From Candidatus Hodarchaeota archaeon (GTDB lineage Archaea > Asgardarchaeota > Lokiarchaeia > Sigyniarchaeales > SOKP01): DNA of 64,000 bases. The stretch spans positions 32,001 through 96,000 of the forward strand of contig JBHLJY010000003.1 in assembly GCA_048887225.1 (NCBI GenBank). The letters run 5' to 3'. Position 1 is the first letter of the stretch. Each line of letters starts with the position of its first letter. Both the position numbers and the translations under genes were made by a program. The notes beneath the pieces are model-generated. The model was not told where the DNA came from and did no database searches. It was given only the letters and a program-made list of their open reading frames with translations. Positions 14,162-44,230 of the stretch are shown here, one piece after another.

Positions 14162-14317
14162 TTTTCAGAAAAATTTTTGATCTTATATAAGTTTAATCCT
14201 TCTCGCAATCAATGTGAGCTTAAATTAAAGGTTCTTTTTTTAGTAATTAAAAAATCTTTAATATTTATTGCAATCTTTAATACTTATTAAAAAATAAAAT
14301 ACAGAAATTGATAAAAA

Positions 14318-15076
14318 ATTATTGGATGGATAATACTATTTAGTTTTTTAGGGAGTGTTGGTGCTATTTGTGCAGCAGCTAGCTTTGTTTTTTTGGGAGA
14401 GAAATATCAAAAAATGCTTGTGCCCATTCTTATAGCATTTGCTACGGGAATACTTCTTGCTGCTGCATTATTAGGTCTAATACCCGAAGCTATTGAAGAA
14501 ATGGGTGAGGAACCACATGCGATTATGCCATTTATTTTGGGAGGTATTTTGTTCTTCTTTTTCATGGAAAAGATTGTGATATGGAGAAATTGTCGAGATA
14601 ATACTTGTGAGGTTCATTCACATGCCTCAGGCCCTATTATACTTATTGGAGACTCCTTACATAATTTATCAGATGGAGTTGTAATAGCAGCTGCCTTTTT
14701 AATTGATTTTGCCCTTGGTATAGCAGCTGGTATTACAATTTTAATTCATGAATTAGCTCATGAGACAGGAGATTTTGGTATCTTACTTCATACAGGATAT
14801 TCAAAAAAGAAAGCTTTTACATATAATATAGTTTCGAGCGCAACTACAATACCTGCCGCAATAATAGGTTATTATTTGTTGACTCCGTTTCTTTTTATTG
14901 TTCCCTTTTTGTTAGCTATCGCAGCAGCAAGTTTTATTTACATTGCATTAACAGATCTAACTCCTGAACTCCATAAACATACTAGTTTAAAGTATAGCAT
15001 TCGTCAATTAATCCTAATTTTAGCAGGAATTTTTACAATGTTCATATTATTATCGCTAAGCGGGCAAGCACACTAA
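14318..15076 (+). CDS. ZIP-family Zn/Fe permease; first TM helix lies upstream of the TTG at 14393
   Basis: AFATGILL, GDSLHNLSDG, HELAHETGDFG. The frame stays open upstream to TAA at 14312 and encodes IIGWIILFSFLGSVGAICAAASFVFL; inferred ATT start at 14318. Confidence 0.9.
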   Translation: MIGWIILFSFLGSVGAICAAASFVFLGEKYQKMLVPILIAFATGILLAAALLGLIPEAIEEMGEEPHAIMPFILGGILFFFFMEKIVIWRNCRDNTCEVHSHASGPIILIGDSLHNLSDGVVIAAAFLIDFALGIAAGITILIHELAHETGDFGILLHTGYSKKKAFTYNIVSSATTIPAAIIGYYLLTPFLFIVPFLLAIAAASFIYIALTDLTPELHKHTSLKYSIRQLILILAGIFTMFILLSLSGQAH

Positions 15077-15233
15077 TAACATCTAGTAGGTGCTACTGTG
15101 AGGAAGACCTCTAGATATATCATAAAAGAGCGTAATTAAAATGATAATAAATCGTATGTCAATAGACTTATTAACTCTACATCATTATACAATAAAAATA
15201 TATTATATATCTACATAGTATTTAGTTTTTGTT

Positions 15234-15347
15234 ATGAAAGAGAAAACTTCAAATTTATTGTTGGGTATTGCCGGAGGAATAATCATTCTTATTATTGTAA
15301 TTACCATTATTGTGATAATATTCCAACTCGTAAGAAAGTATCTCTAA
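15234..15347 (+). CDS. Unannotated 37-aa single-TM microprotein MKEKTSNLLLGIAGGIIILIIVITIIVIIFQLVRKYL
   Basis: Hand-translated ATG to TAA; 23-residue hydrophobic helix with a GxxxG-like start, flanked by basic residues. Confidence 0.55.
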   Translation: MKEKTSNLLLGIAGGIIILIIVITIIVIIFQLVRKYL

Positions 15348-15396
15348 AAAAATAAACCTTTTTTTAAAAAAAGAATAAAAATTGGAACTTTTTAGT

Positions 15397-41463: not shown

Positions 41464-41781
41464 TCACCCTTCCTCCTCTAATTCGTCTCTATGCATTAAC
41501 TCGTCGTGATCAAGTTCGGACTCCGAAAATAAAAGCTTTTCTCTTTCTTGACCAATAAAAATAATTGAAGCACCTCTAATCATAACTGTACCCAAGTTTT
41601 TAGATCTTTTTCCTCCCCTCCCAAAATAGATTTCTTTAGCGTTTTCAACTATTAAATTCATGTAATTATCAAATTTTATTAATTTTCCAGTTAAATATGT
41701 GTTCCAGATTTTTAACTTTATACGTATCTCTGGTTTTAATATCGCTTTACTAAGTGTCCTCGAAACTGTATGTTGAGACAT
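41464..41781 (-). CDS. Sm/Lsm RNA-binding protein with acidic tail
   Basis: Sm1 (GKLIKFDNYMNLIV) and Sm2 (LGTVMIRG) motifs; conserved archaeal lsm-rpl37e linkage. Confidence 0.9.
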   Translation of the reverse strand: MSQHTVSRTLSKAILKPEIRIKLKIWNTYLTGKLIKFDNYMNLIVENAKEIYFGRGGKRSKNLGTVMIRGASIIFIGQEREKLLFSESELDHDELMHRDELEEEG

Positions 41782-41915
41782 CGAAAAAAACTCTCTATGA
41801 AGTTATTTCTATTTAAGTTTGTAAATTATCCCAAATTATAAATATTTTTTTATTTAAGAAAGGATTTGCACTATTAACGCTCAAATTTAAACAATTGTAA
41901 TTGAGTTGAATAATA

Positions 41916-42953
41916 ATTAGTAAAATAGGATATTTTGATGCGGATGTCGTAAGCCCCGAAGAGATTTTTATAGCCGCTGGCTTTACTCCTATTAGACTTC
42001 TAGGAGATCCTATGATAGAACATGACAAAGTTAATGAACATATACCTCCTACTCATTGCGTCTGGGCAAAAAATGTCCTTGAACAAGCATTAAGAGGGCT
42101 TAATTCAGATATAAAAGGAGTAGTAACGAGCCATGGTTGCGATTGTACCAACCGGGAGTTTGATATTTGGAGGGAGACTGTTGATATAGATTTCTTGTTT
42201 TATTTGAATGTTCCTTTAAAGAGAGATAAGACCGCATTAAAGTTTTTTATAACAGATCTTAAAGAATTGGTGGTCCAACTAGAAGAGCAATTTAAGGTCA
42301 AGATTGAGTCTGAAAAAATTAAAAATGCCATTAAATTAACGAATCAGATTCGAAGATTGTTGAAAGAAATTTCCGAATATAGGAGCAAAATGATAATTAA
42401 AGGATCAGAATTTCATGAATTAGTTAAACTCTGTCAGACCAGTGAGAAGTTGTATGCTTTAGAAATCTTGAAAAAAAAATTAAAACAATTAAAAAATAAA
42501 ACACCCTTTATAGATAAAAAAATGAAACGGATTTTACTCACTGGTTCTGTTATTGATGACACAGAATTTTTAAAATTCTTAGAAGAAAAAGGATTTCAAG
42601 TAGTAGCAGACGATTTGTGTATTGGTTCAAGGTATTTTTGGAATAGTATTGATGAAGATAGGGATCCAATAGAAGCAATTGCTAAATATCATTTAAGTAA
42701 GCCATTATATTCTACCAAAATGCCCTCATACGATCGCTTTATATTCTTAAAAGAATTAGCCGAAAAATACGAAGTGGATGGAGTTTTAAATATCGTGCAA
42801 AAGTTCTGCGAACCTATGCTTTATGATCATCCATATCTTAACAAAAAATTTAAGGAATTAAAAATCCCTTACACTTTTATCGAAATGTTATATAATAGAG
42901 AACAATTTAAACAACTTTCAACAAGGTTCGAAGCCTTTGCTGAAATAATTTAG
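41916..42953 (+). CDS. 2-hydroxyacyl-CoA dehydratase / benzoyl-CoA reductase-like subunit (HgdB/BcrC family)
   Basis: HCVWAK, HGCDC, DDLCIGSR, KFCEP, TRFEAFAE. The conserved N-terminus KIGYF...PEEIFIAAGFTPIRL lies upstream of the listed ATG at 42012; inferred ATT start. Confidence 0.85.
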   Translation: MSKIGYFDADVVSPEEIFIAAGFTPIRLLGDPMIEHDKVNEHIPPTHCVWAKNVLEQALRGLNSDIKGVVTSHGCDCTNREFDIWRETVDIDFLFYLNVPLKRDKTALKFFITDLKELVVQLEEQFKVKIESEKIKNAIKLTNQIRRLLKEISEYRSKMIIKGSEFHELVKLCQTSEKLYALEILKKKLKQLKNKTPFIDKKMKRILLTGSVIDDTEFLKFLEEKGFQVVADDLCIGSRYFWNSIDEDRDPIEAIAKYHLSKPLYSTKMPSYDRFIFLKELAEKYEVDGVLNIVQKFCEPMLYDHPYLNKKFKELKIPYTFIEMLYNREQFKQLSTRFEAFAEII

Positions 42954-42955
42954 AG

Positions 42956-44230
42956 GTGAGAGAGCTGTCAGAAAAGAAAAGTAAGATGTTAAAAGCTACT
43001 TTAGGATTAAAAAATGAAATGGGTAGGCATTACTTAGCTATTGAGCAAGCTTATCGTGATGGTACTCCTACTGCCTGGGCAACTTCAGGCACTCCCGTTG
43101 AGCTTTTATATGCGATGGATGTGCAACCAATGTTACCTGAAAATTCAGCCACAATATCAGCAGCACAAAAATATTCACAAGATTTTGTTGAAATTGCTGA
43201 GCAGGAAGGATTTTCTTATGATATGTGTAGCTATTTTAAAACTAATATTGGCGCTATAATGAGAGATGTAGATGTGTTTAAAGGAGGGATAAGAAAGCCT
43301 ACATTTATGTTATCGAGTGATGTCATTTGTGATACCCATGTTCATTGGTTCCAAGTTCAAGCTGAAAGATTAGGAGGTGTTCCACACTATACCATCGATG
43401 TTCCTCATGTTGTAAGTAATACAAATAGGCGACAATTAGGTTACTTTAAAAAATATGTCGAGGAACAAATATGGGAGCTTTTAGAATTTATAAAGAAACA
43501 CACAGGTAATGATATCGATATGGAAAAGGCAAAAAAAGTCGCAGCTAATTCTTATGAGTTAAGCGAAGTATGGAGAGATATTTACGAGTTAAGAAAGACC
43601 ATCCCTTGTCCCATTAGCACTAAAGATACTTTTGGAGGTTTATTTCCATTATTTACTATGCCTGGCTTAAGATCACCTATTAAATTATATAAGAAAATGT
43701 ATAAAGAAGCAAAGGCAAGGGTAGAAGTTGGACAAGGAGCTCTTGAAAAAGAGGAGTTTAGGCTTATGTTTGAAGGAATCCCTTTCTGGTATAATCTTAA
43801 GTATTTTGCTATGTTAGAAAAATTTAACGCGATTATAGTCTATGAGCCTTACACATTTGCCTTCTCGAAGTTTTTCTCCAATCCATTTGAGACTATTACT
43901 AAAGAACAACTTTTAAATGATCCTATAAAATGTATGAGTTCATTGATGTTAAGCTTCTGGTATATTTTTGATCTCGAAACTAGAGTAAAATGGTTTAAAG
44001 ATACAGTTAGTGCTTGGAAAATTGATGGCGTTTTAATGCATAATAATGTTTCTTGCAGACCAAATACATGTGCTTTCTATGATTTAAAACGACGCTTGAC
44101 GGAAGAAGCAGATATTCCCTGTCTAATCATTGATGGAGATCAAAATGATCCTAGAAAGCTAAATAAAGTTCAAACTGCTAATCAGATTGAAAGTTTTATT
44201 GAAGTTCTTAGAGAAAGGAAGAAAAATTAA
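42956..44230 (+). CDS. 2-hydroxyacyl-CoA dehydratase-family second subunit (HgdA/BcrB-like); true start possibly CTG at 42965
   Basis: PVELLYAMD..PEN, MCSYFK, ICD, IDGV..H..VSCR, DGDQNDPR. Confidence 0.85.
   Translation: MRELSEKKSKMLKATLGLKNEMGRHYLAIEQAYRDGTPTAWATSGTPVELLYAMDVQPMLPENSATISAAQKYSQDFVEIAEQEGFSYDMCSYFKTNIGAIMRDVDVFKGGIRKPTFMLSSDVICDTHVHWFQVQAERLGGVPHYTIDVPHVVSNTNRRQLGYFKKYVEEQIWELLEFIKKHTGNDIDMEKAKKVAANSYELSEVWRDIYELRKTIPCPISTKDTFGGLFPLFTMPGLRSPIKLYKKMYKEAKARVEVGQGALEKEEFRLMFEGIPFWYNLKYFAMLEKFNAIIVYEPYTFAFSKFFSNPFETITKEQLLNDPIKCMSSLMLSFWYIFDLETRVKWFKDTVSAWKIDGVLMHNNVSCRPNTCAFYDLKRRLTEEADIPCLIIDGDQNDPRKLNKVQTANQIESFIEVLRERKKN

Follow-up and report, generated by a model that had tools for sequence, protein, structure and literature searches.

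Probable near-cognate start codons behind Shine-Dalgarno sequences in a genome from the Lokiarchaeia

Introduction

Where does translation begin if a conserved gene has no ATG, GTG, or TTG at the beginning of its reading frame? Several genes raise this question in a 64,000-nt stretch of the genome of an Asgard archaeon from the class Lokiarchaeia (GenBank assembly GCA_048887225.1, contig JBHLJY010000003.1). We will refer to this stretch as the window (G000:C3:32001-96000); the genome, G000, has 3.27 Mb in 49 contigs and 30.5% GC. A preliminary description of the window, which was made from the sequence alone, had proposed that five genes begin at the near-cognate codons ATT or CTG, which are placed by the spacing from a Shine-Dalgarno (SD) sequence. 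It also proposed that start codon selection is relaxed in this lineage, so that standard annotation truncates or misses genes. We checked these proposals against related genomes, protein families, and the rest of G000. Throughout, the canonical start codons are ATG, GTG, and TTG, and the coordinates of the five start sites are given within the window (Table 1).

Results

Three genes that almost certainly begin at ATT

For each of the five proteins, we searched up to 40 related genomes for orthologues and read the DNA that encodes their N-termini. In all five cases, some orthologues have ATG or TTG on exactly the codon that had been proposed as the start. Each of the five proposed start codons also lies 5-6 nt downstream of an SD core. 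The 16S rRNA of G000 ends in GGAUCACCUCCU, which makes GGTGA(T) a genuine SD core.

The clearest cases are a ZIP-family permease, a ubiquitin-like protein, and an HgdB-like dehydratase subunit. As had been described, each of these frames is closed upstream by an in-frame stop codon (TGA in each case), and there is no canonical start codon between that stop and the conserved N-terminus. Given this anatomy and the alignments of orthologues, translation of all three almost certainly begins at ATT. Codons that flank the start sites show synonymous changes across the relatives, while the non-canonical start codon persists. The SD sequences of the ZIP and HgdB-like genes are weak, with 4-5 of 7 positions matched.

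The ZIP permease has the start context aaaTTGATaaaaa-ATT, with ATT 14318 lying 5 nt behind AAATTGAT. The in-frame TGA (14309-14311) is within AAATTGAT and is followed by TAA (14312-14314). No canonical codon occurs before TTG 14393, which lies 26 codons into this stop-to-stop frame and 25 past the ATT. This TTG is inside the first transmembrane segment (TM1), so starting there would cut TM1. The orthologues have ATG-(L)-x-W, with ATG on the codon that matches ATT 14318. The start codon is ATT in five genomes (G000, G002, G005, G006, and G009), ATA in G010, ACG in G003, and ATG in G001, G004, and more distant genomes. In G003 (contig G003:C337), the gene reads ATT ACG CTA GAA TGG, where its closest relatives have ATT ATG CTC GAA TGG. 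This ACG would be a second class of near-cognate start, with a mismatch at the second position. ACG also shows a small excess across G000 (4 seen versus 1.1 expected).

The ubiquitin-like gene, on the minus strand, has the context aaaGTGATaaaaa-ATT, with AAAGTGAT and then 5 nt before ATT 31481, and in-frame TGA-TAA immediately upstream of the ATT. Its 87-codon frame has canonical codons at positions 41, 45, 77, and 85 only, none of which is usable as a start. The SD is conserved within the genus as (G/A)AAGTGAT. In other genera, the relatives have ATG (or TTG) ACx CAA TAT, which encodes MTQYRFRL, on the same codon. Within the genus, the start is ATT in six members (G000, G001, G002, G006, G008, and G009) and ATA in G004.

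This gene also bears on the claim about annotation. In a collection of 5.8 billion proteins, we found no protein that is identical to the window's ubiquitin-like product. Its close relatives were called either from a true ATG (MTQYRF...) or from a GTG or TTG that is embedded in the SD (MIKITQYRF... or MWKKITQYRF...). For the ubiquitin-like gene, then, the claim that standard annotation truncates or misses genes is borne out. The gene lies directly upstream of a ThiF/E1-like gene (30319-31185, minus strand; Pfam ThiF, E = 2.4e-41), and a second ThiF/MoeB-like gene lies at 39998-40738. These genes appear to belong to a ubiquitin-type system, two parts of which have ATT starts.

The HgdB-like gene has the context gagTTGAAtaata-ATT. 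Its TGA (41907-41909) is followed by three candidates in a row, ATA-ATA-ATT. We selected the third, ATT 41916, because the alignment of orthologues and the spacing both point to it; ATA 41910 and ATA 41913 are less likely. In 15 relatives, ATG (TTG in G006 and G009) lies three codons before the conserved I-G/A-Y-F-D (as in MKKIGYFD). G000 itself has ATT at this position; G002, a sister with 94% identity, has ATA. The first canonical codon, ATG 42012, is 34 codons into the frame, and the Pfam HGD-D profile (positions 3-342) aligns from residue 14 of the frame, upstream of that ATG.

We also considered ten other ORFs (open reading frames) in the window with long stretches before the first canonical codon. 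None of these has a Pfam domain that begins upstream of the canonical start.

Table 1. Proposed start sites, their SD sequences, and aIF1
Feature	Position	Strand	Basis or remark
SD-like AAATTGAT of ZIP permease gene	14305..14312	+	partial complement of 16S rRNA 3' end GGAUCACCUCCU
ZIP-family permease gene, start ATT 14318	14318..15076	+	orthologue alignment, Pfam
SD-like AAAGTGAT of ubiquitin-like gene	31487..31494	-	then in-frame TGA, TAA
Ubiquitin-like gene (beta-grasp, ...AGG-FLI tail), start ATT 31481	31221..31481	-	orthologues, Pfam
GAGGTGA SD of MoeB/ThiF-like gene	40744..40750	-	contains in-frame GTG 40747
MoeB/ThiF-like gene, probable start ATT 40738 (MLTEDQKKRYSRQ)	39998..40738	-	orthologues, Pfam
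SD-like GAGTTGAA of HgdB-like gene	41903..41910	+	contains in-frame TGA 41907-41909
HgdB-like (HGD-D family) dehydratase subunit gene, start ATT 41916	41916..42953	+	orthologues, Pfam
GAGGTGA SD of HgdA-like gene	42953..42959	+	overlaps HgdB-like stop codon
HgdA-like (HGD-D family) gene, possible start CTG 42965	42965..44230	+	alternatives ATG 42986, GTG 42956
aIF1 (SUI1) gene, sole copy in G000	G000:C26:21131-21427	-	outside window

Two genes with a GTG inside the SD

In the MoeB-like and HgdA-like genes, the preliminary description had noticed that an in-frame GTG is part of a perfect GAGGTGA and that a near-cognate codon follows just after it. The sequence is as described, with 5 nt between the SD and the near-cognate codon, and the two genes came out differently.

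For the MoeB-like gene, relatives have ATG TTA ACT GAA (MLTE), with ATG on the codon of ATT 40738. The aligned codon is ATT in G000, G002, G005, G006, and G009. In G006 and G009, GCG replaces the upstream GTG, so there is no canonical alternative. Because these two genomes lack that GTG, we take the ATT, rather than the GTG within the SD, as the probable start in G000 as well.

For the HgdA-like gene, G002 has TTG on the codon that aligns with CTG 42965, and the other relatives have ATG. This gene does not lack canonical starts ahead of its conserved N-terminus: besides the GTG within the SD, there is an ATG just 7 codons downstream. There is little conservation in the residues from CTG 42965 to ATG 42986, and the Pfam domain does not start until residue 48. 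We consider CTG 42965 to be an evenly balanced proposal. ATG 42986 is a serious but less probable choice, and GTG 42956 is unlikely.

Near-cognate codons across the genome

To see how common such starts are in G000, we considered ORFs with 100 codons or more whose first codon lies 6 nt after GGTGA. As controls, we used spacings of 3, 9, and 12 nt, which keep the identical in-frame TGA. At 6 nt, the first codon was ATG 13 times, ATA 12 times, ATT 11 times, TTG 4 times, and GTG twice; at the control spacings, ATT and ATA appeared just 1-5 times each. Together, ATT and ATA account for 23 of the 42 non-canonical codons at 6 nt, as compared to 16 of 172 at the control spacings (P = 7e-10, Fisher exact test).

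We also performed a broader tally in 2,727 non-overlapping ORFs, limited to the zone from the upstream stop to the first canonical codon, with all other sense codons as decoys. (This replaced an earlier tally over whole 5' zones with coding sequence, in which the background of in-frame GGT-GAT, for Gly-Asp, swamped the signal.) At 5-7 nt behind SDs of 5 nucleotides (5-mers), ATT was seen 36 times versus 15.7 expected (P = 8e-6), and ATA was seen 35 times versus 13.1 expected (P = 4e-7). There was no such excess in G000 for the decoys AAT, AAA, TTA, or TTT. Across the genome, the spacing profile of ATT and ATA, including its optimum, matches that of ATG.

The excess of each codon that is linked to an SD gives a rough count of the starts. 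With 5-mers, the excess was 170 for ATG, 48 for TTG, 6 for GTG, 20 for ATA, 18 for ATT, 5 for ACG, and 2 for ATC. With 4-mers, it was 368 for ATG, 111 for TTG, 15 for GTG, 36 for ATT, 26 for ATA, and 5 for ACG. TTG starts are indeed frequent, as had been claimed. In total, the near-cognate excess is about 47 (5-mers) to 70 (4-mers), versus 224 to 494 for the canonical codons. We estimate that about 50-70 genes in G000 start at near-cognate codons, which is 2-3% of the long ORFs, and that these are about one in five to one in eight (12-20%) of the starts that are led by an SD. This count of genes is a minimum, as it leaves out those whose SD holds an in-frame GTG (the MoeB-like gene, for example). 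Canonical starts in the window that had been offered for comparison (41459, 50732, and 54242) do lie downstream of SD-like motifs, at a measured spacing of 4-6 nt. We tried to use the tail of the distances to the first canonical codon (up to 200-300 affected ORFs) as another estimator, and rejected it: the figure rises with the cut-off, which indicates spurious ORFs.

Are the genome-wide candidates real genes? We scanned 20 of them against Pfam. In 7 of the 20 cases, a domain starts 2-8 residues from the ATT or ATA, well upstream of the first canonical codon. The seven domains are His_biosynth, Ras, PGM_PMM_I, Phosphodiest, Polyketide_cyc2, RUBY_RBDX, and CoA_binding. For example, positions 1-227 of the His_biosynth profile align with residues 2-229, and positions 1-160 of the Ras profile align with residues 2-154. 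The genes with near-cognate starts include single-copy core functions (aIF1, uS11, HisA, and SucD). ATT is the codon of the clear cases in the window, and candidate starts at ATA, ATC, and ACG are found elsewhere in the genome.

Comparison to other Asgard genomes

We ran the same pipeline on 1.2 Mb from each of two other genomes. G032 (G032:C1:1-1200000) is from another family in the same order, and G064 is from another family in the same phylum and has the same GC content as G000 (30.5%). In G032, ATA is in excess (12 seen versus 3.6 expected, P = 3.5e-4), and there is no excess of ATT. Among the convincing single cases in G032 are an FtsX-type permease, with GGTGAtttctt-ATA, and a TFE-like gene, with GGTGAccatcg-ATT and a first canonical codon 91 codons downstream. 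In G064, neither ATT (4 seen versus 2.9 expected) nor ATA (2 versus 2.5) is in excess, while ATG, TTG, and GTG show the usual excess behind SDs. Since G064 is equally AT-rich and shows no signal, AT-richness alone is not sufficient to produce it, and the trait is specific to certain lineages. The idea that start codon selection is relaxed in this lineage holds up in this sense: ATT and ATA are in excess in G000 and the decoys are not, ATA is in excess in G032, and G064 shows neither. As a mechanism, relaxed selection is something that we infer from these patterns.

aIF1 and the initiator tRNA

One of the affected genes encodes the initiation factor aIF1 (SUI1), which has just one copy in G000. 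Before the CPxC zinc knuckle of aIF1, there is no ATG, GTG, or TTG; instead, ATC lies 9 nt after AAGGTTGTGA. In 22 of 22 genomes from family f1 that have a match, the start of aIF1 is ATC or ATT, 9 nt after the same conserved AAGGTTGTGA. It is ATA in three genomes from family f2 and in families f11 and f17, perhaps CTG in family f6, and ATG, GTG, or TTG in the remaining Asgard families. The gene for this fidelity factor itself carries a weak start signal. In the three genomes that we tallied, aIF1 starts with ATC (G000), TTG (G032), or ATG (G064), and a link between the start codon of aIF1 and near-cognate usage across the genome is only suggestive.

The initiator tRNA of G000 is ordinary: it has a CAU anticodon, an A1:U72 pair, and three G:C pairs in the anticodon stem. 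Its gene (G000:C34:11007-11133) has a 48-nt intron at position 41. Among the tRNAs identified by ARAGORN, we saw no second initiator-like tRNA with an anticodon other than CAU, but this is weak evidence because the set is incomplete. ARAGORN found only 32 tRNAs in G000; many others presumably contain introns or were not assembled.

Discussion

Initiation at near-cognate codons

The start sites, the positions of start codons in orthologues, the conservation of the sites, and the genome-wide enrichment with its negative control all need to be explained. We consider it quite likely that the genes are intact and are translated from near-cognate codons, by initiation that is anchored by the SD and under relaxed stringency. 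The SD, which is complementary to the 3' end of the 16S rRNA (with the core GGUGA or GUGAU), would put the codon 5-7 nt downstream into the P site. There, the ordinary initiator Met-tRNA (anticodon CAU) would pair with it despite a mismatch at the third position. In the window, the codon used in this way would be AUU; the rest of the genome would add AUA, AUC, and ACG, and CUG may be used as well. This lineage would tolerate mismatched start pairing more than most prokaryotes do. Mutations from ATG to ATA or ATT behind good SDs would then have persisted across species because such pairing is tolerated in this AT-rich genome. Finally, aIF1, which lies behind its own AUC or AUU start across the family, may act by negative feedback to keep the set point for stringency relaxed. 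Such a feedback loop is plausible because archaeal aIF1 is reported to reject AUU on 30S complexes and because bacterial IF3 autoregulates via an AUU start (PMC4705826, PMC5499595).

Several points weigh against this explanation. First, ATT and ATA go with GGTGA-type SDs, with TGA in frame (22 cases versus 12 for ATG at 6 nt), and are scarcely found behind GGAGG-type SDs (4 cases versus 37 for ATG at 9-10 nt), while ATG uses both. A simple SD-anchored model does not predict this preference. (Weak codons may need the SD duplex to be close to the P site.) Second, G032 shows an excess of ATA although its aIF1 starts at TTG. Third, a codon-usage likelihood for 700 ORFs with a pre-canonical stretch of at least 10 codons gave almost no separation from an "intergenic" null. 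This test has little power, because short genes contaminate the null and a GC content of 30% leaves only a weak codon bias, and we did not use it for our estimate. Fourth, within the window, judged by the sequence of G000 alone, the in-frame GTG may be the start of the MoeB-like gene, and a start at ATG 42986 would retain every conserved residue of the HgdA-like protein.

Alternative explanations

The start codons might instead be recoded before or during initiation, by RNA editing to AUG, by a non-initiator tRNA, or by a shift from the overlapping GTG or TTG of (G/T)TGA. The three clear cases in the window do have an out-of-frame GTG or TTG 10 nt upstream, and the strong tie to in-frame TGA is not fully explained. 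But translation from those GTG and TTG codons would meet a stop after just a few codons, there is no slippery run at the HgdB-like site, and the spacing profile of ATT and ATA tracks that of ATG. The tRNA set, although incomplete, offers no second initiator-like tRNA, and we know of no RNA editing to AUG start codons in archaea. We consider recoding to be very unlikely, and frameshifting in particular can be set aside, as the sites share no slippery sequence.

Another explanation is that standard annotation is right, so that the next canonical codon is the start and the conserved stretch upstream of it is not translated. Downstream canonical codons are available in 4 of the 5 genes, and ATG 42986 would cost the HgdA-like protein nothing that is conserved. 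In the other direction, comparison across genera shows synonymous changes in these stretches and conservation of the protein that they encode. With truncation, the ZIP permease would lose TM1, the ubiquitin-like protein would lose half of its fold, and about 20 positions of the HGD-D profile would be missing. In other parts of the genome, the losses would extend to the P-loop of a Ras protein, the N-terminus of HisA, and an entire rubredoxin-like domain. These losses make this explanation, too, improbable.

The loss of ATG is a common inactivating mutation, so these genes might be taking the first step towards becoming pseudogenes. However, the frames are intact and are conserved across species and genera, the ATT state of the ubiquitin-like gene is common to six species of the genus, and the affected genes include the core genes for aIF1, uS11, HisA, and SucD. 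Gene decay is highly improbable.

Errors in assembly or consensus (substitutions or indels) that destroyed ordinary ATG starts deserve almost no weight: G000 is a draft genome in 49 contigs, but the same ATT and ATA codons recur in the same frames in up to seven independently assembled genomes of sister species, which excludes consensus error, and the excess is confined to ATT and ATA at the SD spacing.

We also rejected two changes to the genetic code. With a variant code or read-through of stop codons, translation would have to pass TGA and then TAA in both the ZIP and the ubiquitin-like genes, and the DNA upstream is AT-rich and intergenic. As for reassignment of ATA or ATT, both serve as ordinary isoleucine codons at conserved isoleucine positions.

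Comparison to known systems

Initiation at a near-cognate codon that depends on an SD is a known phenomenon, and our results support viewing the starts in G000 as a large-scale form of it. For instance, pcnB of E. coli starts at AUU. E. coli has two or three near-cognate genes, as compared to about 50-70 here. The bacterial gene infC, which encodes IF3, has an AUU or AUC start behind an SD and is autoregulated, so that its synthesis rises as stringency falls (PMC4705826, PMC5499595). The parallel is that aIF1, the functional counterpart of IF3, starts at AUC or AUU in this lineage; on 30S complexes, the aIF1 of archaea reportedly selects against AUU (PMC4705826). Unlike IF3, aIF1 belongs to the SUI1 family, whose fold is unrelated, and its autoregulation is putative.

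Eukaryotes also initiate at near-cognate codons, and their eIF1 is autoregulated through the poor context of its own start codon. The resemblance is that stringency is set by a factor of the SUI1 family whose own mRNA carries a weak signal for initiation (the role of eIF1 in start codon selection is reviewed in PMC4705826). The difference is that eukaryotes rely on scanning and Kozak context, while here the site is set by the SD, and it is the codon that is weak.

Among archaea, ribosome profiling of Haloferax volcanii found that about 30% of putative alternative initiation sites are near-cognate (PMC7261190). Those sites are alternative or extra and were set aside by the authors; they are not the sole starts of conserved genes. 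Another case is the Asgard tubulin AtubA from the Kariarchaeaceae, which was truncated in GenBank and was restored from an upstream ATT at a plausible distance from the ribosome binding site, described as a "rare ATT start codon" (PMC13394414). That is a single gene from another Asgard lineage, and the study makes no genome-wide or comparative claim. The literature that we searched yielded no report of Asgard archaea with widespread non-AUG starts, and the ATT of AtubA was the sole mention of any (PMC13394414).

Implications

NCBI translation table 11 already permits starts at ATT, ATC, ATA, and CTG, as used here, but gene finders such as Prodigal accept only ATG, GTG, and TTG. Callers with this restriction would truncate or drop a few per cent of the proteins in this lineage. 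Naive calling of starts with table 11 is not a remedy: it over-extends most genes in this AT-rich DNA, so evidence from the SD or from homology is needed. The affected proteins include eukaryotic-signature proteins that are cloned and modelled, such as ubiquitin-like proteins, small GTPases, and tubulin (the published case). More broadly, according to a published view, the genes of very AT-rich prokaryotes seldom start with anything but ATG (PMC5499595), and ATT and ATA starts in this AT-rich lineage run counter to that view.

A tentative extension is that stringency is a regulated variable in the Lokiarchaeia, and that the 50-70 or so genes with AUU or AUA starts form a translational regulon that answers to the level of aIF1. 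Its members would include parts of the ubiquitin system, small GTPases, the ribosomal protein uS11, and metabolic enzymes. We think that this is possible but doubtful.

Asgard archaea are the closest known relatives of eukaryotes, and the two have initiation machinery of the eIF1/eIF2 type in common. Because AUU and AUA starts are common and conserved in this lineage, and because the fidelity factor itself has a weak start, the evolution of stringency and its feedback become testable. If the regulon exists, it would be an archaeal forerunner of the autoregulation of eIF1 and of near-cognate control in eukaryotes.

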